A stretch of DNA of 64,000 nt from NCBI GenBank assembly GCA_964527555.1, contig CAZGOG010000005.1, forward strand, positions 5,863 to 69,862, given 5' to 3'. This DNA is from an uncultured Planctomycetia bacterium (GTDB lineage: Bacteria; Omnitrophota; Gorgyraeia; Tantalellales; Tantalellaceae). The translations under genes and the position numbers were made by a program. Of this stretch, positions 15,608 through 58,852 are shown in pieces (the first letter of the stretch is position 1; each line of letters starts with the position of its first letter). The notes under the pieces are model-generated. The model did not search any database. It had not been told where the DNA came from and saw only the letters and a program-made list of their open reading frames with translations.

Positions 15608-15738
15608 ACCTGTGAAGCTCCATGGGCTAACGCCCATGGAATCCACAGTTTCAGTCGTTCCGTCAAGCGGAAAGACTGCACCGAAGGGCGTTCATCCATG
15701 CCCTTACGGGCGTGGTTTTCTGGTGCGTGGGTAAAAGC
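15608..15738 (-). repeat. Family-1 structured intergenic repeat, copy A (inverted, degenerate)
   Basis: Reverse complement aligns to copies B-D at about 90%. The outer helix is disrupted by substitutions. Confidence 0.8.
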
Positions 15739-18161: not shown

Positions 18162-18290
18162 TTTTACCCATGCACCAGAAGGCCACGCCCGTAAGGGCGT
18201 GGATGAATGGCCTTCGGTGCAGGGTTCCGCTTGACGGAAAGACTGAAACTGTGGATTCCATGGGCGTTAGCCCATGGAGCTTCACAAGGT
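18162..18290 (+). repeat. Family-1 structured intergenic repeat, copy B
   Basis: About 97% identical to copies C and D. Contains three hairpins and ends 40 nt before the ATG at 18331. Confidence 0.85.
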
Positions 18291-27354: not shown

Positions 27355-28131
27355 ATGGAAGATTTGGATAAAATAAAGAAAGTCGCCGAGGAAATGGCGA
27401 GGGAAGCCGGAGAGTACGCTATAAAACACATAGATAAAGTAGCTCAAGTTTCCCACAAGGGAGGATACAATAATCTCGTCACGGATGTCGACAAAAAATG
27501 TGAAAGCGTAATCATAAACCGGATAAACAAGGAATTTCCAAGTCACTCGATACTCGCCGAAGAGAGCGGAGATCATGCCTCTAAAAGCAGCGTTAAGTGG
27601 TTTGTCGATCCGCTTGACGGGACGACAAACTATGCGCACGCCTTTCCGGTTTTTTGTACTTCAATAGGCGTGGCTTTTGATTCCATCGTTAAAGTGGGAA
27701 TTGTATATGATCCATCCCGAGACGAACTTTTTGCCGCCGAAGATGGGAAAGGGGCTTTTTTAAACGGCAAGAGAATTAGTGTTTCCGGTATAAAGACGGT
27801 TAATGACTCACTTATGGCAACGGGATTTGCTTATGATCTTAAGGGGAAAGTCGCAAATATTGATGCTTTTAAAGTAATGCTCGAAAATGCCCAGGCTGTC
27901 AGGCGGGCGGGCTCGGCTGCAATTGACCTTTGTTATGTGGCATGTGGCCGTTTTGACGGATTCTGGGAATTAGGGCTTAATCCCTGGGACACCGCCGCAG
28001 GTCAACTGATAGTGAAGGAATCAGGAGGGGTTGTAACCACAATCGAGAACGGGCCTTTTGATGTGTATAAAAAAGACATTCTGGCCACAAATGGCAAGAT
28101 ACATGAACAAATATTGCGCCTGATGAAATAG
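27355..28131 (+). CDS. suhB: Inositol monophosphatase family protein
   Basis: 'WFVDPLDGTTNY' metal-binding motif. Confidence 0.8.
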   Translation: MEDLDKIKKVAEEMAREAGEYAIKHIDKVAQVSHKGGYNNLVTDVDKKCESVIINRINKEFPSHSILAEESGDHASKSSVKWFVDPLDGTTNYAHAFPVFCTSIGVAFDSIVKVGIVYDPSRDELFAAEDGKGAFLNGKRISVSGIKTVNDSLMATGFAYDLKGKVANIDAFKVMLENAQAVRRAGSAAIDLCYVACGRFDGFWELGLNPWDTAAGQLIVKESGGVVTTIENGPFDVYKKDILATNGKIHEQILRLMK

Positions 28132-34476: not shown

Positions 34477-34488
34477 GGTTTTTTTACA

Positions 34489-34666
34489 GGTTATGGTTCG
34501 ACTCACTTCGTTCGCTCACCATGAATCTGCGAGGAAAGATATTTTGAACTTAGAACGAAGGAACACCAGGGTGTGAAGGCGTGGACGCGGAAGTTGTGAC
34601 GCCAACAGGCGAAAAAGATGAAAGGGCGGACGTAAGTCCGTGGAGATTCATGAAAGGAGCACGGTC
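34489..34666 (+). ncRNA. Family-2 conserved leader element, copy 1 (candidate cis-regulatory RNA)
   Basis: About 94% identical over 80 nt to 48574-48653, with patchy similarity through to the RBS. Directly upstream of PIN-PhoH. Confidence 0.55.
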
Positions 34667-38577: not shown

Positions 38578-39014
38578 TTTCTTGCCTTCCTTTCCGCAAA
38601 ACCCGTTTTGACAAAGGCAAGACCCTGTGGATAGGCTTACAAAAAGTTAGCAGAAAATGATGATCCAAGAGTTTCAGTTTCGGCAGTCTGACGACCATGT
38701 CCCCAAAAGGGGAGTTAGGCTCATGACTTTGCGTCCTATCCTTTAGGATAGTTTGCCTTTATCGTCTATAAACAAGTTTTTTAAAGAGCTTTTGCGATCT
38801 CAATTATAAGCTTAATGATAAAAAAACAAAAAGCAAGATGGAAAAACAAACTTTTTAATATTTAACTTTGATCGAGATTTTAGTATAATTTAAACGCAAA
38901 ATCAAAGAGATTTCCATAGTTGTAAAATTTCATTTGTCTTTCAGGTACTATTTTTATATAATCTATTGCACCAAAAGTGCAAAAGGTCTTGTATAAAATA
39001 CGCAAGGAGAAAAA

Positions 39015-39494
39015 ATGCATACGAAAAAGCGCGTGACATTAACGCGGGAAGGCCGTGAGAAGATATGTAAGGAACTGGAGTTTCTTAAAGGTGAGAGGCG
39101 CCGTGAAATAGCAAAAGCTCTTGCCGAAGCCAGAGCACACGGGGATTTGAGCGAAAATGCCGAATATGATGCCGCAAAGGAAGCCCAGGCCATGAACGAA
39201 AAGAAGATCGCGCAGCTGGAACATACTTTGATGAATGCGCAGCTCATTGATAATGATGCTATGCCCAAAGACATAGCGCTTTTAGGGGCAACAGTAAAAG
39301 TGGGGGACAAAGACACCCTGGAAGAATTTGATTATATGCTTGTCTCTGAAGAGGAATCGGATCTTGATAGAAACAAAATATCCGTTTCCTCACCGGTCGG
39401 TAAAGCCCTCCTGGGGCACAGGGTAGGGGACATCGTTGAAATAGAAGTTCCGGCTGGGGCCATCAAATATGAAATTTTAAAAATCAGCCGGTAA
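39015..39494 (+). CDS. greA: Transcription elongation factor GreA
   Basis: 159 aa with an N-terminal coiled coil carrying 'DLSENAEY' and a C-terminal FKBP-like domain. Confidence 0.85.
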   Translation: MHTKKRVTLTREGREKICKELEFLKGERRREIAKALAEARAHGDLSENAEYDAAKEAQAMNEKKIAQLEHTLMNAQLIDNDAMPKDIALLGATVKVGDKDTLEEFDYMLVSEEESDLDRNKISVSSPVGKALLGHRVGDIVEIEVPAGAIKYEILKISR

Positions 39495-39620
39495 TTTACC
39501 CATGCACCAGAAGGCCACGCCCGTAAGGGCGTGGATGAATGGCCTTCGGTGCAGTCTTTCCGCTTGACGGAAAGACTGAAACTGTGGACGCCATGGGCGT
39601 TAGCCCATGGAGCTTCACAA
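39494..39620 (+). repeat. Family-1 structured intergenic repeat, copy C
   Basis: Starts at the greA stop codon and ends 25 nt before the phosphoesterase ATG. Confidence 0.85.
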
Positions 39621-48300: not shown

Positions 48301-48572
48301 CCCGTTCGGTAAGGGAACAGAAGTCTGTCACCAAAGGCGTAATCCAGTTTTTGGAACCGGTATCAGAGACCGTAAAAAAATACAGCATGGAAAAAGGCAC
48401 ATACAGCGATATCACCGTCGATCTTACGGATGAGATGGTTAAGGAGCTTAAAAATGTTATAATGGATTGCTGGAATAATATACAGGCGCTTAAGTTCGAG
48501 AAGTTGCCGGAAAGAGACGATAAAGACAGGTGCGCCCGGTGTGAATATGACTCTATTTGCTGGCAGAGGTAA
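45396..48572 (+). CDS. UvrD/PcrA-type helicase fused to a C-terminal PD-(D/E)XK Fe-S nuclease (AddA/Cas4-like)
   Basis: Walker A 'AGPGTGKTQ' and UvrD motifs. The C-terminus carries 'C...CARCEYDSIC' (C-x2-C-x5-C). Confidence 0.75.
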   Translation: MDAFQKYYKSLNSQQRKAAGTTDGAVLVLAGPGTGKTQLLSIRTANIIRQNKAKAENILILTFTNAAARAMRQRLASVIGHDGYNVEVETFHSFANSIVLESEGAIKYVKDRIEMSEVEKVRAIEYILDNVKGAEVLRPFGSPYIHRKEIEKRISELKNEGITPEDFNSSLKDLKADGINLEERHITRLNALSIIYENYEKLKDEKSLVLFDERGRIDYDDMILIALDALKKDEELRKLFRKEYKYVMVDEYQDTNGAQLELLFAILDPVSCNVCCVGDDDQAIYRFQGATLANFRELKKRLPALETIKLTDNYRSTGRLIELTDKIIRQLPEKERIAVKNLTSCAHYNNDGIRFLEFLTEEEELAFLVEEVKKQADIIKKDKSLSAEEREKPFNNIAVLVRKREQILRVIDAFLKAGVPYATDGEEDIRQERRVRQMLDVLELARASAATNERKSLVLYKVLTSDYIDASQTDILKFISFIEGLRRSRKANGIDDYRSCNFFEIFVERFARFEKNADGGNLMPSGSESSALGIARELKLENPCALHKAAWAINRLLADSGSRPVHDVLMRYISDVNLYRFILKRYEKDQVIRIRDLRALVSFINMVKEADMANPALGLDEFMEELSLREMHGMPVKGELATLSQDGVRLYTAHKSKGLEFYTVFMPFCLEQKSWPVRKKAETVPLPPEICRSKERATEKETLKLLNRYDELRLFYVASTRAKAYLIYTATPREKVVISQFLSYIGMEPVSGAPPEEEEFLGEYLQRTKDRDPLENISDAVQDIVTNLSLNPTSLNNYITCRRKFLYDNVLRLPGRKNQHLVFGNCAHKALEEVYTSFMDNGKFPSFVFFKDAFKKELEYQGSTSEIKTWCLDRLETLSKWYAVSAKSPVMPMDLENKLEIHIPEGPLFKGTFDKIEADAAGGIRVIDYKTGKPDKHIKAIANCKDLSKYACDDYYRQLVAYKMLYEASRSVREQKSVTKGVIQFLEPVSETVKKYSMEKGTYSDITVDLTDEMVKELKNVIMDCWNNIQALKFEKLPERDDKDRCARCEYDSICWQR

Positions 48573-48573
48573 A

Positions 48574-48751
48574 GCTTATGGTTCGACTCACTTCGTTCGC
48601 TCACCATTAATCTGCGGGGAAAGATATTTTGGACTTAGAACGAAGGAACACCACGGATGTTAATTCGTGGATGCAGAACTATATCGACCGAAGGTCGCAA
48701 AGGGATGAACCACGGACGTGAATCCGTAGAGATTCATAAGGAGAGATGACC
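48574..48751 (+). ncRNA. Family-2 conserved leader element, copy 2 (candidate cis-regulatory RNA)
   Basis: Begins 2 nt after the helicase stop and ends at the yhaM start. Confidence 0.55.
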
Positions 48752-55980: not shown

Positions 55981-56214
55981 ATGGAAAAAGACGTAGCTGT
56001 ATTTGCAAAGAACAAGTATCAGGACGTGAAAATACGCTTGTCCGAATACCAGGGGAATGATGTAATTGACATCAGGATCTGGACGCAGCCGCCGCAGGGT
56101 GACGAAAAAGTTCCTACGGGAAAGGGAGTCAATATAAATGTGAGGCTCTTCCCGGAACTTAAGGCGGCGATTGAAAAACTTGAGCGTGAGCTTAAAGAAG
56201 CGAATATGCTCTAG
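55981..56214 (+). CDS. Hypothetical protein (possible PC4/YdbC-like ssDNA-binding fold)
   Basis: Weak motif similarity only. Confidence 0.3.
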   Translation: MEKDVAVFAKNKYQDVKIRLSEYQGNDVIDIRIWTQPPQGDEKVPTGKGVNINVRLFPELKAAIEKLERELKEANML

Positions 56215-56292
56215 TTTTGAGGCAAACGTATTCTTATCAAAGAATACCAGGAAGACATAAATCCTGAGATATATTTTAACCAGAGGGATCAA

Positions 56293-56730
56293 ATGCCGCA
56301 TCACGAAAGACGACGTTATATCCGACATCTCTTAGTTAACCCGCTTGAGTTTCAGATCGCCGATAAAGAAGATTTTGAGAAGACCGAGACGGTTGATGTA
56401 AGTGAAGGGGGCCTCATGTTCATGTCTAAGCGGCGCGTCTCACCCGGGACAGTTATAAGGCTTCAGATGCCGCTATATGACAAGATCTTCAAGATAAAAG
56501 CAGCAGTCGTACATGCCACAAAAGATGCAGCAACGGGTCTATATAAAATAGGCGTTTCATTTTTAAGTTACGCCGATGCCTTCAAGGTAAAGCTTATCGA
56601 ACAGATATATCTAATAGAAGAATACCGCGTTTTACGTTCCCTCCAGCTGGGCAAGGAAATGTCGCTTCAGGAAGCCTCCAAGGAATGGATAAAGAGATAT
56701 TCCGAAAGATTCCACAAACTCTACTGGTAA
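56293..56730 (+). CDS. PilZ domain protein
   Basis: 'RRRYIRH' and 'DVSEGGLMF' motifs. Confidence 0.6.
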   Translation: MPHHERRRYIRHLLVNPLEFQIADKEDFEKTETVDVSEGGLMFMSKRRVSPGTVIRLQMPLYDKIFKIKAAVVHATKDAATGLYKIGVSFLSYADAFKVKLIEQIYLIEEYRVLRSLQLGKEMSLQEASKEWIKRYSERFHKLYW

Positions 56731-56863
56731 ATTGGCCTTTCCAAGCGTTTTTCTGTAAAAATTTAATTTTTTTCAATCCACAACATTATGTGCAGGTGTT
56801 TTTCCGGCAACCTATATAGTGTGTACTTTCTAAAAAGTTTTATAATGTCAAAAAACTCTTTAT

Positions 56864-56892
56864 TTGACAAAATATATATACTTGTGTATACT
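56864..56892 (+). promoter_or_regulatory. Consensus sigma-70 promoter (TTGACA-N17-TATACT) for the dcw cluster
   Basis: Read directly from the sequence, about 40 nt upstream of the mraZ start. Confidence 0.55.
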
Positions 56893-56929
56893 CTCTTGAT
56901 GTGAGTGGTATAAAGTGGAGGAAAGTGGA

Positions 56930-57367
56930 GTGTTTTACGGAGAATACTTACATAGCTTAGATAAGAAGAACCGTTTGATCATACCGTCGCGGTTCCGCGA
57001 TGCCATAAAGGAGATGGCAATAGAAAAACTTTATGTCACACGCGGGCTGGATGAGTGTCTTTTTATATTTGCTGAAGCCGAATGGAAGGCTCAGGAGAAC
57101 AAATTTAAAGCCATGCCTTTCACAAAGAGGGAAGTAAGGAAGTTTAAACGTATGTTCTTTTCCGGTGCCGCTGAAGCTGTTCCCGATAAGCAGTGGAGGA
57201 TACTCATCCCGGATTACCTCAAGGAATACGCCTCTCTTACAAAGAGCGTGATGATAATCGGTGTATCCAACCGTATAGAGGTCTGGGACAGGAAAAAATG
57301 GGAAGAGTTTTATAAGATCTCTAAAGAGAATTACGAAGAGATCGCCGAAGGATTGATGGAAGCCTAA
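56930..57367 (+). CDS. mraZ: Transcriptional regulator MraZ
   Basis: Duplicated 'DxKxRxxIP' motifs. The GTG at 56930 gives the canonical 'MFYGEY' N-terminus. Confidence 0.8.
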   Translation: MFYGEYLHSLDKKNRLIIPSRFRDAIKEMAIEKLYVTRGLDECLFIFAEAEWKAQENKFKAMPFTKREVRKFKRMFFSGAAEAVPDKQWRILIPDYLKEYASLTKSVMIIGVSNRIEVWDRKKWEEFYKISKENYEEIAEGLMEA

Positions 57368-57390
57368 ATAGCTGGACGGAGGGACTTAAG

Positions 57391-57582
57391 ATGTATAGAC
57401 GATATGCCGTTAAATTCCATAAGAAGCAGGCAGAGTTCATTAATTGCGTCAACATGGTTGAGAGGATAAAAAAAGCCAGGGCCTTACCTGCGGGCATCTC
57501 CCATCTTGGGGTTAAACGGTATACCATCTCTTCATTCGGGTTCGGTAAGGCTACTCATATAACGGTCAAAGATTGTGCGTAG
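57391..57582 (+). CDS. Hypothetical small protein (63 aa)
   Basis: ORF only. Confidence 0.3.
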   Translation: MYRRYAVKFHKKQAEFINCVNMVERIKKARALPAGISHLGVKRYTISSFGFGKATHITVKDCA

Positions 57583-57629
57583 TGTTTGTGTGGTTTGCGC
57601 ATTTAGCGTTCTTTCATTCGGCCTTTAAG

Positions 57630-57753
57630 TTTTACCCATGCACCAGAAGGCCACGCCCGTAAGGGCGTGGATGAATGGCCTTCGGTGCAGGGTTCCGCTT
57701 GACGGAAAGACTGAAACTGTGGATGCCATGGGCGTTAGCCCATGGAGCTTCAC
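57630..57753 (+). repeat. Family-1 structured intergenic repeat, copy D
   Basis: About 97% identical to copy B. Lies inside the dcw cluster, 12 nt upstream of the ATG at 57766. Confidence 0.85.
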
Positions 57754-57765
57754 TTAGGGGGACCT

Positions 57766-57951
57766 ATGAAGAAAAAGAAATACCTCCAGGCATGTGAAAT
57801 CGGCGGATCGCTTTACGGGAAGACACAGACGGCTGTCAGAGTCGGTTTTGACAAAAAAGGCGCGGACAAGAAAAGCCTTATGAGGGATTACACCCAGCTT
57901 TATAGACGTCAGATCGCCGTCCTGGATAAAGTCTTCCGCCGGGACAAGTGA
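57766..57951 (+). CDS. Hypothetical small basic protein (61 aa)
   Basis: RBS 'AGGGGGA'. The track ORF start (57742) is repeat read-through. Confidence 0.35.
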   Translation: MKKKKYLQACEIGGSLYGKTQTAVRVGFDKKGADKKSLMRDYTQLYRRQIAVLDKVFRRDK

Positions 57952-57967
57952 GGGAAAGGATCCTTTA

Positions 57968-58852
57968 GTGCATCTTCCGGTGCTTTTGCATGAAGTGATA
58001 GATCATCTTGATCTTGAGGACGGTGATGTCATCCTTGACGCAACCCTGGGCGGAGGCGGGCACGCCGTAGAAATCCTCAAGAAGATCGTTCCCACCGGGA
58101 CTCTTATAGCGGTAGAAAAAGACCCGGAAGCCATCGAGATAAGCAAGAAGCGTCTTAAAGATTTTGCAAAGAACATCATCTATGTAAATGACGATTTTCG
58201 CAATATAGATAAGATACTGAAAAAAGTAAATATAGAGAAACTTGCCGGCGCGGTATTTGATCTCGGAGTCTCTTCTTTTCAGCTGGATGAGGGGAGAAAA
58301 GGTTTTAGTTTCCTGAGGGACGGCCCCCTTGACATGAGGTTTAATGCCGGGAGGGGCCTCTCAGCCAGGGACATAGTAAACAGCTTCAAGAGAGAGGAAC
58401 TTGCTTCTATCATCAAGGAGTATGGCGAGGAAAGATACGCGCGGCGCGTAGCCGAGGCGATCTGTAAGGCTCGGGAAGAAAAGGCGATCACGACGACCGG
58501 AGAGCTTGCCGATATTATTGTTAAAGCAGTCGGGAATAAGTACCGCAGCCAGAAGCTTCATCCTGCGGTAAGGACTTTTCAGGCGATAAGGATCTTTGTC
58601 AATGACGAGCTTACCTCTATCGAAGAGGCCGCCGGTAAGACGATCGACCATTTAATGGCGGGGGCAAGGATCTGTGTAATCTCGTTTCATTCGCTTGAAG
58701 ACAGGATCGTTAAGAATGCTTTCCGCAGGGAAGCGGTATCCGGAAGGGTCAGGCTCCTGAGGAAAAAACCGATTACGCCGTCCCGGGAGGAACTTGAGCA
58801 TAACGCGCGTTCAAGGAGCGCGAAACTTCGCGTTGCAGAAAGGCTGGCATGA
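57968..58852 (+). CDS. rsmH: 16S rRNA (cytosine1402-N4)-methyltransferase
   Basis: 'LDATLGGGGH' SAM-binding motif. Confidence 0.9.
   Translation: MHLPVLLHEVIDHLDLEDGDVILDATLGGGGHAVEILKKIVPTGTLIAVEKDPEAIEISKKRLKDFAKNIIYVNDDFRNIDKILKKVNIEKLAGAVFDLGVSSFQLDEGRKGFSFLRDGPLDMRFNAGRGLSARDIVNSFKREELASIIKEYGEERYARRVAEAICKAREEKAITTTGELADIIVKAVGNKYRSQKLHPAVRTFQAIRIFVNDELTSIEEAAGKTIDHLMAGARICVISFHSLEDRIVKNAFRREAVSGRVRLLRKKPITPSREELEHNARSRSAKLRVAERLA

Follow-up and report, generated by a model that had tools for sequence, protein, structure and literature searches.

The window, the 64-kb stretch of DNA which was analysed here as a whole, carries the head of a dcw cluster with the gene order mraZ, orf1, orf2, rsmH, a 119-aa FtsL-like ORF, PBP, murE, murF, mraY, murD, ftsW and murG. 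The presence of mraZ and rsmH followed by ftsL and PBP identifies it as a dcw head, with orf1 and orf2 as extra members. mraZ was recognised by its Pfam match (MraZ, 1.2e-38), and its length of 145 aa was also found in the gene calls on identical contigs. The sole promoter-like site on the + strand of 56700-58100 is situated upstream of mraZ (TTGACA-17-TATACT) and, by its sequence, is likely the promoter of the dcw operon. In well-studied bacteria mraZ abuts rsmH. Here the distance between them was found to be 600 nt (57367 to 57968), as an earlier sequence-only reading had estimated. The gap holds a 63-aa ORF (orf1), a repeat and a 61-aa ORF (orf2), both ORFs lying where that reading had placed them, and the repeat indeed ends (57753) 12 nt short of the ATG of orf2 at 57766.

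The small genes of the mraZ-rsmH gap

Both small ORFs encode basic proteins, and matches to Pfam and NCBIfam were sought for both and not found. orf1 has homologues in 104 clusters, nearly all of 63 aa, and every cluster with a named source is from Omnitrophota. Identity to the window protein ranged from 59 to 84% among 54 aligned homologues, with dN/dS of 0.136 and 0.014. For orf2, 61 representative clusters were obtained at E<=1e-3, 41 of them at E<=1e-10; its homologues showed 44-87% identity, and dN/dS was 0.08 in comparison with the related locus L013. Both ORFs are thus conserved, and the low dN/dS values indicate purifying selection on each. The AF2 model of orf1 has a pLDDT of 72 with a helix in the N-terminal half only, and Foldseek retrieved no PDB entry that matches it (best E 9.4); neither result points to a function.

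Nine related loci were compared. Eight of them (L013, L014, L016-L019, L134 and L139) show the order mraZ-orf1-orf2-rsmH, and the ninth (L135), from which orf2 is missing, shows mraZ-orf1-rsmH; orf1 therefore lies between mraZ and rsmH in every locus, and the repeat is present in none. PC4 and PilZ, the upstream neighbours of mraZ, are likewise conserved in relatives. As the relatives hold orf1 and orf2 at this place without the repeat, the separation of mraZ and rsmH is ancestral and made of genes, and orf1 and orf2 represent an Omnitrophota variation on the dcw head. The spacer between orf1 and orf2 is 183 nt in the window in comparison with 25-68 nt in eight relatives, all of which lack the element there, indicating a recent insertion of 118 nt (57636-57753). 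The Shine-Dalgarno sequence of orf2 (AGGGGGA) sits 3' of the insertion point. Part of the gap therefore exists without the repeat, and only the 118 nt are new in the window species. The sequence-only reading was right that the head of the operon has received an insertion. Its view of the 600 bp as one insert is not supported, as orf1 and orf2 are ancestral genes. The description of these ORFs as orphans has to be given up, as they have Omnitrophota homologues, show signs of purifying selection and occupy the same place in relatives.

Anatomy of the element and pairing of guides with cleavage sites

The repeat in the gap (copy D) matched the profile of the element family with 1.2e-34. Its boundary was set by analogy with IS608, in which the TTAC target is kept outside the element (PMC3201880); accordingly 57630-57635 (TTTTAC) was treated as target and 57636-57753 as the element proper. 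On the IS608 paradigm, TTAC would thus belong to the target and not to the element. In relatives the empty sites have diverged too far for a base-exact boundary, and none of them has TTAC at the site. With this boundary the left end reads CCATGCACC, preceded by TTAC, and the right end reads GCTTCAC. The features are collected in Table 1.

Table 1. Coordinates of genes, element parts and element copies in the window
Feature	Position	Strand	Description
Promoter-like site	56864..56892	+	5' of mraZ; TTGACA-17-TATACT, 11/12 consensus matches
mraZ	56930..57367	+	145 aa from GTG 56930; longest ORF starts 56915
orf1	57391..57582	+	63-aa basic protein; conserved in Omnitrophota dcw clusters
TTAC	57632..57635	+	Putative target and left cleavage site C_L; outside element
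Copy D	57636..57753	+	118 nt, top strand = + strand; probable non-autonomous IS200/IS605-type (PATE-like) element
Left guide G_L	57647..57650	+	AAGG; directly 5' of left hairpin
Left subterminal hairpin IP_L	57651..57670	+	CCACGCCC-GTAA-GGGCGTGG; 15 nt from left cleavage site
Central hairpin	57693..57707	+	TTCCG-CTTGA-CGGAA; length varies among subfamilies
Right guide G_R	57722..57725	+	GATG; directly 5' of right hairpin
Right subterminal hairpin IP_R	57726..57745	+	CCATGGGC-GTTA-GCCCATGG; form resembles IP_L
Right cleavage site C_R	57750..57753	+	TCAC; final 4 nt, element end 8 nt past IP_R foot
orf2	57766..57951	+	61-aa basic protein; conserved
rsmH (mraW)	57968..58852	+	GTG start; Pfam Methyltransf_5 1.5e-106
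Copy A	15612..15730	-	Diverged; preceded by TTTAC at 15731-15735
Copy B	18168..18285	+	Preceded by TTTAC
Copy C	39500..39618	+	TTAC target begins 1 nt past stop of 159-aa ORF 39015-39494

The two subterminal hairpins are direct and on one strand, share the form CC-N6-GTWA-N6-GG and are not accompanied by terminal inverted repeats. The ends are asymmetric, with 15 nt from hairpin to cleavage site at the left and 8 nt at the right. Target duplication is absent, and the right flanks are unrelated among copies. Covariation was analysed in 28 aligned sequences. Each stem consists of 8 pairs, of which 6 in IP_L and 5 in IP_R changed on both sides, with 98.7% and 96% of cells paired, respectively. 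Outside the stems, the unpaired stretches CCAGAA and GGATGAATGG are highly conserved; attempts by eye to read them as a K-turn, loop E, hammerhead or hairpin ribozyme gave no consistent motif. The RNA fold of the copy has -70.7 kcal/mol (z = -5.6). An outer stem, AAGGCC/GGCCTT, sequesters the left guide and covaries across subfamilies, as judged from a list of its pairs and not from a formal count. IS608 offers no explanation for this stem, and it counts against an IS608-like reading.

The tetranucleotides 5' of the hairpins were compared with the cleavage sites under the pairing rule C1:G2, C2:G1, C3.G3 and C4:G4. Part of this rule is published for IS608 (A+16:T-3 and A+17:T-4; PMC5934647) and part was inferred from the sequences of its guides and cleavage sites. 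Under this rule, G_R GATG and C_R TCAC form Watson-Crick pairs throughout, and G_L AAGG meets TTAC as T:A, T:A, A.G and C:G. In the family, G_L has the consensus AA-N-G and many subfamilies possess AAAG, which is the G_L of IS608. The position C_L3.G_L3 is mostly unpaired, as TTAC/AAAG of IS608 implies. At the right end, the C_R/G_R combinations TTAC/AATG, CCAC/GGTG, CCAT/GGTA, TCAC/GATG and TCAT/GATA were observed, and the variant TCAC/GAAG also occurs. Over the 28 sequences, G_R2:C_R1 is AU in 19 and GC in 8, G_R4:C_R4 is GC in 21 and AU in 6, and C_L4:G_L4 is CG in 20 and UA in 6. Guide and cleavage site are paired in 92.6% of cells; shuffling gave 80.8%, with none of 500 shuffles reaching the observed value, and slid controls gave 28-49%. 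The sample consists of related sequences, and part of the signal may trace to few events. Complementarity accompanied by covariation was found at three of the four right-end positions and, for the left end, at position 4. The crosswise guide/cleavage pairs were also proposed independently by RNAalifold, and the register of positions 3 and 4 is impossible for an ordinary helix. Two other pairings were considered. A plain parallel reading, under which the window type has mismatches of the kinds C:A and T:G, gave way to the crosswise IS608 rule (PMC5934647). A pairing between the GTAA loops and TTAC was dropped as the loops stay constant when the target becomes TTAT.

Copies of the element and search for a transposase

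A 49-mer of the repeat occurs exactly three times in the window against none expected from 100 shuffles. Profile search of the 64 kb found four full copies (A-D), spanning 15612-15735 on the - strand (2.8e-26) and 18163-18285, 39495-39618 and 57631-57753 (1e-31 to 1e-34). The 159-aa ORF in front of copy C is presumably greA. A 39-nt partial match at 27604-27642, first counted as a fifth copy, lies inside a coding sequence which we take to be of inositol-monophosphatase type and was judged a chance match. A further copy, antisense, is positioned between murD and ftsW just beyond the window.

The element, 96-170 nt long across the family, was found at more than 111 metagenomic loci with 108 unique insertion sites in unrelated flanks. 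It occurs in Omnitrophota and in one or more MAGs of Uhrbacteria (CPR). TTAC lies directly 5' in exact register at 74 of the 108 unique sites; the off-register sites are mostly register-shifted subfamilies, also with TTTAC or TTTAT. One MAG, Omnitrophica RBG_13_46_9, contributed 24 identical copies. The element is present in every contig of the window species, and a number of assemblies break off inside it. At the 43 sites with co-directional genes, 27 copies are sense and 16 antisense. For IS200/IS605 elements, strand-specific transposition with a bias to the lagging-strand template would be expected. Of 104 sites, 70 have the top strand on the G-rich strand, as do three of the four window copies; this tendency is confounded with coding-strand bias and was counted over sites which are not independent. 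The inspected copies stand between ordinary genes. At four loci (L055, L079, L095 and L131), other small repeats were found inserted within palindromes. Pattern scans of viral contigs gave nothing, or chance matches in phage tail-gene repeats. BLAST against phages and plasmids gave only weak matches, all to Haladaptatus plasmids, in which the same left-end hairpin is found with GGATGAAT after it, TTAT 19 nt upstream and a TnpB gene 1.5 kb away; these are suggestive of a family link. A limited literature search found no description of this family.

No transposase gene was found within the window or around the copies, and no full-length element with the same ends in about 0.95 Mb of fetched DNA. 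The transposase search consisted of a motif scan and tblastn with transposase queries over these 0.95 Mb. It gave one real match to Y1_Tnp (PF01797, 1.3e-16), at locus L049 of Omnitrophica RBG_13_46_9, the copy-richest MAG. This gene, which encodes a protein of 225 aa, is nearer to REP-associated (RAYT) transposases than to IS200, its best model being NF047646 with 57 bits (cut-off 80), and it has no flanking copies. Two further contigs of Omnitrophota contain homologues of it, and no copy lies within 10 kb of either. The other transposase matches were spurious, such as one antisense to a 410-aa GTPase-like ORF in L089. Near copies with a left end only or in pairs (L124, L037, L090, L062, L110 and L071), an autonomous partner was looked for and the ORFs proved to be ordinary genes. 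Among the ORFs inspected in the fetched loci, tnpB was noticed only in Haladaptatus.

Relation to known elements and alternative explanations

The organisation of the element resembles that of IS608 of Helicobacter pylori, the prototype of IS200/IS605. The TTAC target outside the element, the lack of target duplication, the pair of similar subterminal hairpins on a single strand, the 4-nt guides 5' of each foot and the G_L AAAG of many subfamilies are common to both. In IS608, TCAA is situated 10 nt 3' of IP_R, and the ends measure 19 nt at the left and 10 nt at the right (PMC3201880); here the left end is similarly the longer (15/8 nt), and C_R/G_R is TCAC/GAAG or TCAC/GATG instead of TCAA/GAAT. 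Unlike IS608, the 96-170-nt element lacks tnpA and tnpB, has GTAA loops in both hairpins, a central hairpin and a covarying outer stem round IP_L, and occurs in Omnitrophota and Uhrbacteria. PATEs are known from Haloquadratum walsbyi (PMC3119063), and PATE-like elements from Geobacillus stearothermophilus (PMC10055086). With them the element shares near-terminal palindromes, the absence of inverted terminal repeats and target duplication, a length insufficient for a transposase gene, a 5' targeting sequence of 4-5 nt and a 5' terminal segment longer than the 3' one (PMC3119063, PMC10055086), and in both cases small repeats have inserted into palindromes. It differs from them in sequence family and phylum. 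Many haloarchaeal PATEs keep longer terminal segments of parent IS605-type transposons (PMC3119063), whereas such a parent was not found here.

Resemblance to REP/REPIN sequences with their RAYTs lies in the abundance of intergenic hairpin repeats, in the RAYT-like gene of one copy-rich genome and in a Y1 HUH enzyme of the same superfamily, which would be single-copy and act in trans. Each REP consists of one short palindrome with GTAG on its 5' side, and REPs usually occur in inverted pairs. The present element has instead no GTAG, its hairpins are direct, its left and right ends differ, and it possesses guides as well as a TTAC target. Classical MITEs (Correia/NEMIS, ERIC, RUP, BOX) are similarly small, multicopy, intergenic and folded when transcribed. 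Those co-transcribed with operons can change how an mRNA is processed or how stable it is, and the sequence-only reading had envisaged an effect of this kind. Classical MITEs possess terminal inverted repeats and target duplications, both absent here, and move as double-stranded DNA.

Copy D is best explained, with a probability of roughly 0.85, as a transposase-less member of IS200/IS605, a PATE organised like IS608, which is a passenger in the dcw mRNA. Such an element would move as single-stranded DNA ('peel and paste'). Both subterminal hairpins on the top strand would be bound by a tyrosine transposase of the Y1 (HUH) type provided in trans, and the 4 nt 5' of each hairpin would serve as DNA guides pairing with the cleavage sites. 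The element would be excised as a circle and then inserted 3' of TTAC without duplication. In the window species it would have landed in the spacer of about 65 nt between the resident orf1 and orf2, which had already parted mraZ and rsmH in the ancestor, just 5' of the ribosome-binding site of orf2. There it is probably co-transcribed now as a strongly folding passenger. Regarding its effect, the sequence-only reading had proposed attenuation or a new 5' end for the dcw cluster. Promoter-like or terminator-like sites were not found in the element, nor a terminator-like site in 57368-57967; after the hairpins come AGCTTCAC and TTAGGGGG, and a U-tract follows no hairpin. That proposal is therefore left without sequence support. 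Most likely copy D has little or no effect on dcw regulation, a neutrality suggested solely by the absence of signals, and its insertion is an ordinary event.

Retention by the host, with a single-copy RAYT mobilising a REP-like element whose hairpins stabilise or punctuate mRNAs including that of dcw, is rather unlikely. It is favoured by the best score of the only Y1 gene against a RAYT model, in the genome with 24 identical copies, by the position of inspected copies between ordinary genes, by the very stable RNA fold and by the lack of an autonomous IS in the DNA searched. But the score is below the cut-off, the gene has no flanking copies, both orientations to transcription occur and relatives do without the element at the dcw site; the distinct ends, direct orientation, TTAC target and IS608-type guides without a GTAG motif also speak against it. 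A functional structured RNA regulating the downstream gene (attenuator, riboswitch-like leader or small RNA), which stands near the idea of attenuation, is disfavoured and very improbable. The strong conserved secondary structure, the conserved unpaired stretches, the GNRA-type loops and the location of three of the four window copies upstream of same-strand genes would fit it. Independent regulatory leaders, however, are not expected to be near-identical copies; antisense copies are common (16 of 43 sites, copy A and the murD-ftsW copy), the element is missing at the same site in all relatives examined, and the guide/cleavage covariation describes a helix which no RNA could form. In addition to the lack of a U-tract, Rfam gave no match to the repeat, either in the whole window and 20 diverse loci at gathering score or in 57300-58000 at E<=10.

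Equally slight is the chance that right-end transcripts guide a TnpB encoded elsewhere (omega/reRNA-like), as proposed for some PATEs. PATEs have been reported often to encode omega RNAs on which TnpB acts in trans (PMC10055086), and the top strand of copy D is the transcribed sense strand. Against it, the inspected ORFs of the fetched loci showed tnpB in Haladaptatus only, and there was no IS605-orfB or omega-like match in Rfam. The part 3' of the centre is moreover only about 60 nt, short for an omega RNA scaffold. An origin of orf1, repeat and orf2 as one foreign cassette of 600 bp has next to no probability. It could appeal to the adjacency of mraZ and rsmH in well-studied bacteria and to the lack of a Pfam or NCBIfam family for the ORFs, but orf1 is in place across Omnitrophota and orf2 in many of them without the repeat, both appear to be under purifying selection, and PC4 and PilZ upstream are conserved too. 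It is refuted on the time scale of the window species, and an ancient acquisition at the base of the phylum is still conceivable. Concerning the genes themselves, it is doubtful that orf1 and orf2 are unrecognised division or envelope regulators acting with MraZ and RsmH, whose expression the insertion could uncouple. If they were, the tripled spacer and the very stable fold 12 nt before the start of orf2 might bring about such uncoupling.

The mraZ-rsmH gap of the window is thus corrected from a single insert to two real conserved small genes and one recent mobile-element insertion. The genes represent two families of small proteins encoded within the dcw operon of Omnitrophota; very little is known of the cell biology of this phylum. 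The element would represent an abundant IS200/IS605-type PATE family of uncultivated lineages which breaks metagenome assemblies and may be of use in strain definition and in the search for its transposase. It also offers a worked example of why 'structured' repeats that are near-identical and lie upstream of genes should be tested as ends of single-strand transposons before regulatory RNA is considered. The natural variation of this family appears to reproduce the guide/cleavage-site code of IS608.

Resident genes and the insertion between mraZ and rsmH

The 600-nt gap between mraZ and rsmH contains two small ORFs (orf1 and orf2) and one copy of the repeat (copy D), which ends at 57753, 12 nt upstream of the orf2 ATG. 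Downstream of rsmH, the dcw cluster continues with a 119-aa FtsL-like ORF, PBP, murE, murF, mraY, murD, ftsW and murG. All features of this split arrangement described in the sequence-only reading were present in the sequence. The PC4- and PilZ-domain genes upstream of mraZ were also found in related Omnitrophota loci wherever the contig was long enough, so this neighbourhood is conserved together with orf1 and orf2.

Features of the window and of the fetched loci (prefix L); positions without a locus name refer to the window
Feature	Position	Strand	Remark
PC4-domain gene (77 aa) and PilZ-domain gene (145 aa)	55981-56730		directly 5' of mraZ
Promoter-like site, TTGACA-17-TATACT	56864-56892	+	5' of mraZ
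Three AGTGG direct repeats	56904-56928		at 56904, 56914 and 56924; exact 10-nt spacing
mraZ	end 57367	+	Pfam MraZ, 1.2e-38
orf1	57391-57582		63 aa
orf2	57766-57951		61 aa
rsmH	start GTG 57968	+	Pfam Methyltransf_5, 1.5e-106
Repeat copy A	15612-15735	-	profile match; diverged
Repeat copy B	18163-18285	+	profile match
Repeat copy C	39495-39618	+	profile match
Repeat copy D	57631-57753	+	profile match
Junction at copy C	39492-39499		TTAC target near ORF stop
murD-ftsW repeat copy	L001 18530-18653	-	fifth copy
Second repeat family	34487-34652; 48572-48737		two copies, about 165 nt
c-di-GMP-I riboswitch aptamer	38679-38767	-	Rfam RF01051, 77.7 bits, E 1.4e-13
Hairpin element inside a family member	L055 2440-2610
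Haladaptatus plasmid match	L136 2985-3415
Y1 (HUH) transposase, 225 aa	L049 5210-5887	-	PF01797, 1.3e-16

Both small ORFs, earlier called orphans, proved to be conserved genes holding the same position in relatives. For orf1, 104 homologue clusters were found, nearly all of 63 aa; those with a source name all belong to Candidatus Omnitrophota/Omnitrophica, and the 54 aligned homologues show 59-84% identity to the window protein. On this evidence the window belongs to a bacterium of the Omnitrophota. A profile run against 1.84 billion representatives gave 61 orf2 clusters at E<=1e-3, of which 41 at E<=1e-10, with members nearly all of 51-88 aa, matched across most of their length, and identities of 87-44%. 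By the Nei-Gojobori method, dN/dS of orf1 was 0.136 between the window and the related locus L013 and 0.014 between L016 and L017; in the remaining pairs synonymous sites were saturated, with pN of about 0.15. For orf2 the value was 0.08 (window and L013). At the level of sequence, these ratios show that orf1 and orf2 are under purifying selection. The order PC4-PilZ-mraZ-orf1-orf2-rsmH-ftsL-PBP is complete in L013, L014, L016 and L134, and parts of it are present on the shorter contigs of L017, L018, L019 and L139. The more distant genome of L135 has mraZ-orf1-rsmH without orf2. Neither ORF matched any Pfam or NCBIfam family. The AlphaFold model of orf1 (55 sequences) was of moderate confidence (pLDDT 72), with helices in residues 2-37, and had no neighbour in PDB. 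As a side observation, these are two small genes inside the dcw cluster found, to date, in Omnitrophota.

The spacer between orf1 and orf2 is 25-68 nt long and free of the repeat in all eight relatives having both genes, and 183 nt long in the window. After removal of 57636-57753, the window reads CTTTAAGTTTTAC joined to TTAGGGGGACCTATG, and L013 has CTTTAAATCTGTCAGGAGGGTCCATG at the corresponding place, which locates the insertion just upstream of the orf2 Shine-Dalgarno sequence. The insert is present in all contigs of the window species; several assemblies break within it, as expected of a multicopy repeat. Judged by this comparison, the repeat is a recent insertion. The proposal of an insertion at the dcw head therefore held for its place and failed for its size, which is 118 nt and not 600, as the related loci keep the small-gene spacer and lack the repeat.

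Architecture of the repeat and comparison with IS608

The same layout is common to every subfamily. (T)TTAC lies directly 5' of the element. The left hairpin, CC-N6-GTAA-N6-GG, carries CCAGAA-NN on its 5' side and GGATGAATGG on its 3' side. A variable central hairpin follows, and then a right hairpin similar to the left one, with AAGA-N on its 5' side and about 8 nt to an end in TCAC, CCAC, CCAT or TTAC. Terminal inverted repeats and target duplications were absent from every subfamily. In IS608, TTAC serves both as the target and as the left cleavage site and precedes the left hairpin by 19 nt, and TCAA follows the right hairpin at a distance of 10 nt. The 4-nt guides AAAG and GAAT, 5' of each hairpin, pair with the cleavage sites, and DNA is neither gained nor lost on transposition (PMC3201880; PMC5934647). 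The overall layout is alike, with hairpin distances of 15 and 8 nt here and 19 and 10 nt in IS608.

Cleavage sites (C) and guides (G) of the left (L) and right (R) ends were paired by the rule C1:G2, C2:G1, C3.G3, C4:G4. PMC5934647 gives the first two, crosswise pairs in IS608 (A+16:T-3, A+17:T-4), and positions 3 and 4 were inferred from the guide and cleavage sequences of IS608. By this rule the right end of the window repeat, TCAC with GATG, is entirely Watson-Crick. The right site and guide change jointly between subfamilies (TTAC/AATG, CCAC/GGTG, CCAT/GGTA, TCAT/GATA, TCAC/GAAG). In an alignment of 28 sequences, G_R2:C_R1 is AU in 19 and GC in 8, G_R4:C_R4 is GC in 21 and AU in 6, and C_L4:G_L4 is CG in 20 and UA in 6; C_L3.G_L3 is mostly unpaired, as IS608 TTAC/AAAG implies there too. 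Elements with a left guide ending in A adjoin TTAT or TTGT, not TTAC. Changes on both sides were seen in 6 pairs of one hairpin and 5 of the other in this alignment. Overall, 92.6% of cells were paired; shuffles gave 80.8%, none of the 500 being as high, and slid controls gave 28-49%. RNAalifold independently proposed the crosswise guide pairs. Since the position-3 and -4 pairs cross each other and the remaining pairs, the pattern is impossible for an RNA helix.

On its IS608-like layout and guide-cleavage covariation, the repeat is filed as a non-autonomous IS200/IS605 element. The same class is named palindrome-associated transposable element (PATE) in Haloquadratum (PMC3119063) and 'PATE-like' in Geobacillus (PMC10055086). 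The class is already known; new here is an IS608-like PATE family in Omnitrophota and CPR.

Other elements were noticed besides. The second repeat family of the window (core 93% identical) ends in ...CGGACGTAAGTCCGTGGAGATTCAT, as the PATE right end does, gives weak PATE-profile matches (E 0.002 and 0.05) and carries a ATGGTTCGACTCAC...CGCTCACCAT module; it is probably a related IS200/IS605-type element. Some members of the PATE family at metagenome loci (L055, L131, L079/L093, L095, L091) contain other small hairpin elements, inserted in the right-hairpin loop or the body, and the L055 insert is similar to the ATGGTTCGAC...CTCACCAT module of the second family. These inserts are reminiscent of Haloquadratum, where PATE palindromes are targets of small mobile repeats (PMC3119063).

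Distribution, strand preference and candidate mobiliser

A 49-mer of the repeat has three exact occurrences against 0 expected, and a profile search found four full copies in the window. A repeat-finder match at 27604 lies within coding sequence and was judged chance. The fifth copy, about 2.3 kb past the right end of the window, lies antisense between murD and ftsW, as a second copy inside the same dcw operon. Its terminal GTGAAG in place of the target GTAAAC changes the murD stop from TAA to TGA with position kept, and the MurD protein is unaltered. The TTAC target of copy C starts 1 base past the TAA stop of a 159-aa ORF, which we take to be greA, so that copy C begins 5 nt after the coding sequence end. 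A degenerate pattern scan gave more than 111 metagenomic loci as a lower bound. Among the matches listed, there are 108 unique insertion sites, whose flanks are unrelated, and 24 identical copies in Omnitrophica bacterium RBG_13_46_9. A 27-mer search gave one diverged homologue with compensatory stem changes, in a Candidatus Uhrbacteria MAG.

Of 104 sites among the matches listed, 70 have the element top strand on the G-rich strand. Three of the four window copies are on the + strand, and this strand has a uniformly and strongly positive GC skew across 1-64000 (+0.10 to +0.17). The IS200/IS605 family has a reported bias to the lagging-strand template; the G-rich-strand preference fits this bias, but is confounded by coding-strand bias.

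Weak BLAST matches on Haladaptatus plasmids show GAGAATACC-ACGCCC-TTGA-GGGCGT-GGATGAATC with TTAT 19 nt upstream, a second hairpin with the end ...GAGTCAC, and a TnpB gene (OrfB_IS605) 1.5 kb off, whose 3' end is ...GGGGTAGTTCAC. This likeness suggests an element end architecture common to different domains. The plasmids are NZ_CP085338 and NZ_CP085333 (L136 and L137), with TnpB near in one case; their left-end hairpin and the following GGATGAAT are similar to the Omnitrophota family.

The window encodes no transposase, and the fetched DNA, about 0.95 Mb, showed no full-length element with the same ends. The sole Y1_Tnp gene there is that of RBG_13_46_9 (L049); one copy is 840 nt away, and copies do not flank the gene, so we only infer the mobilising enzyme. 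This Y1 transposase is a candidate mobiliser in trans. Of the NCBIfam models, that of the REP-associated tyrosine transposase fits it best, with a score of 57 bits that falls short of the cut-off (80). A RAYT-like, REP-style relationship, as a variant of the same mechanism, is a live alternative. The contigs around two Omnitrophota homologues of the gene carry no repeat copies.

Possible effects on the dcw operon

On the + strand of 56700-58100, a single promoter-like site is present, upstream of mraZ. The AGTGG repeats between its -10 box and the mraZ start resemble an MraZ operator, going by the MraZ-binding repeats of other bacteria. Attenuation or a new 5' end provided by the insert had been proposed, and no sequence signal for either was seen: 57368-57967 has no + strand promoter-like and no terminator-like site, and no U-tract follows the repeat hairpins. 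As RNA the insert has a very stable fold (-70.7 kcal/mol, z = -5.6); processing, or the translational coupling of orf2, might be affected by it. The orf2 ribosome-binding site is intact, and family members lie sense to genes in 27 cases and antisense in 16 among the matches listed. The most economical reading is that the insert is a tolerated passenger of the dcw operon.
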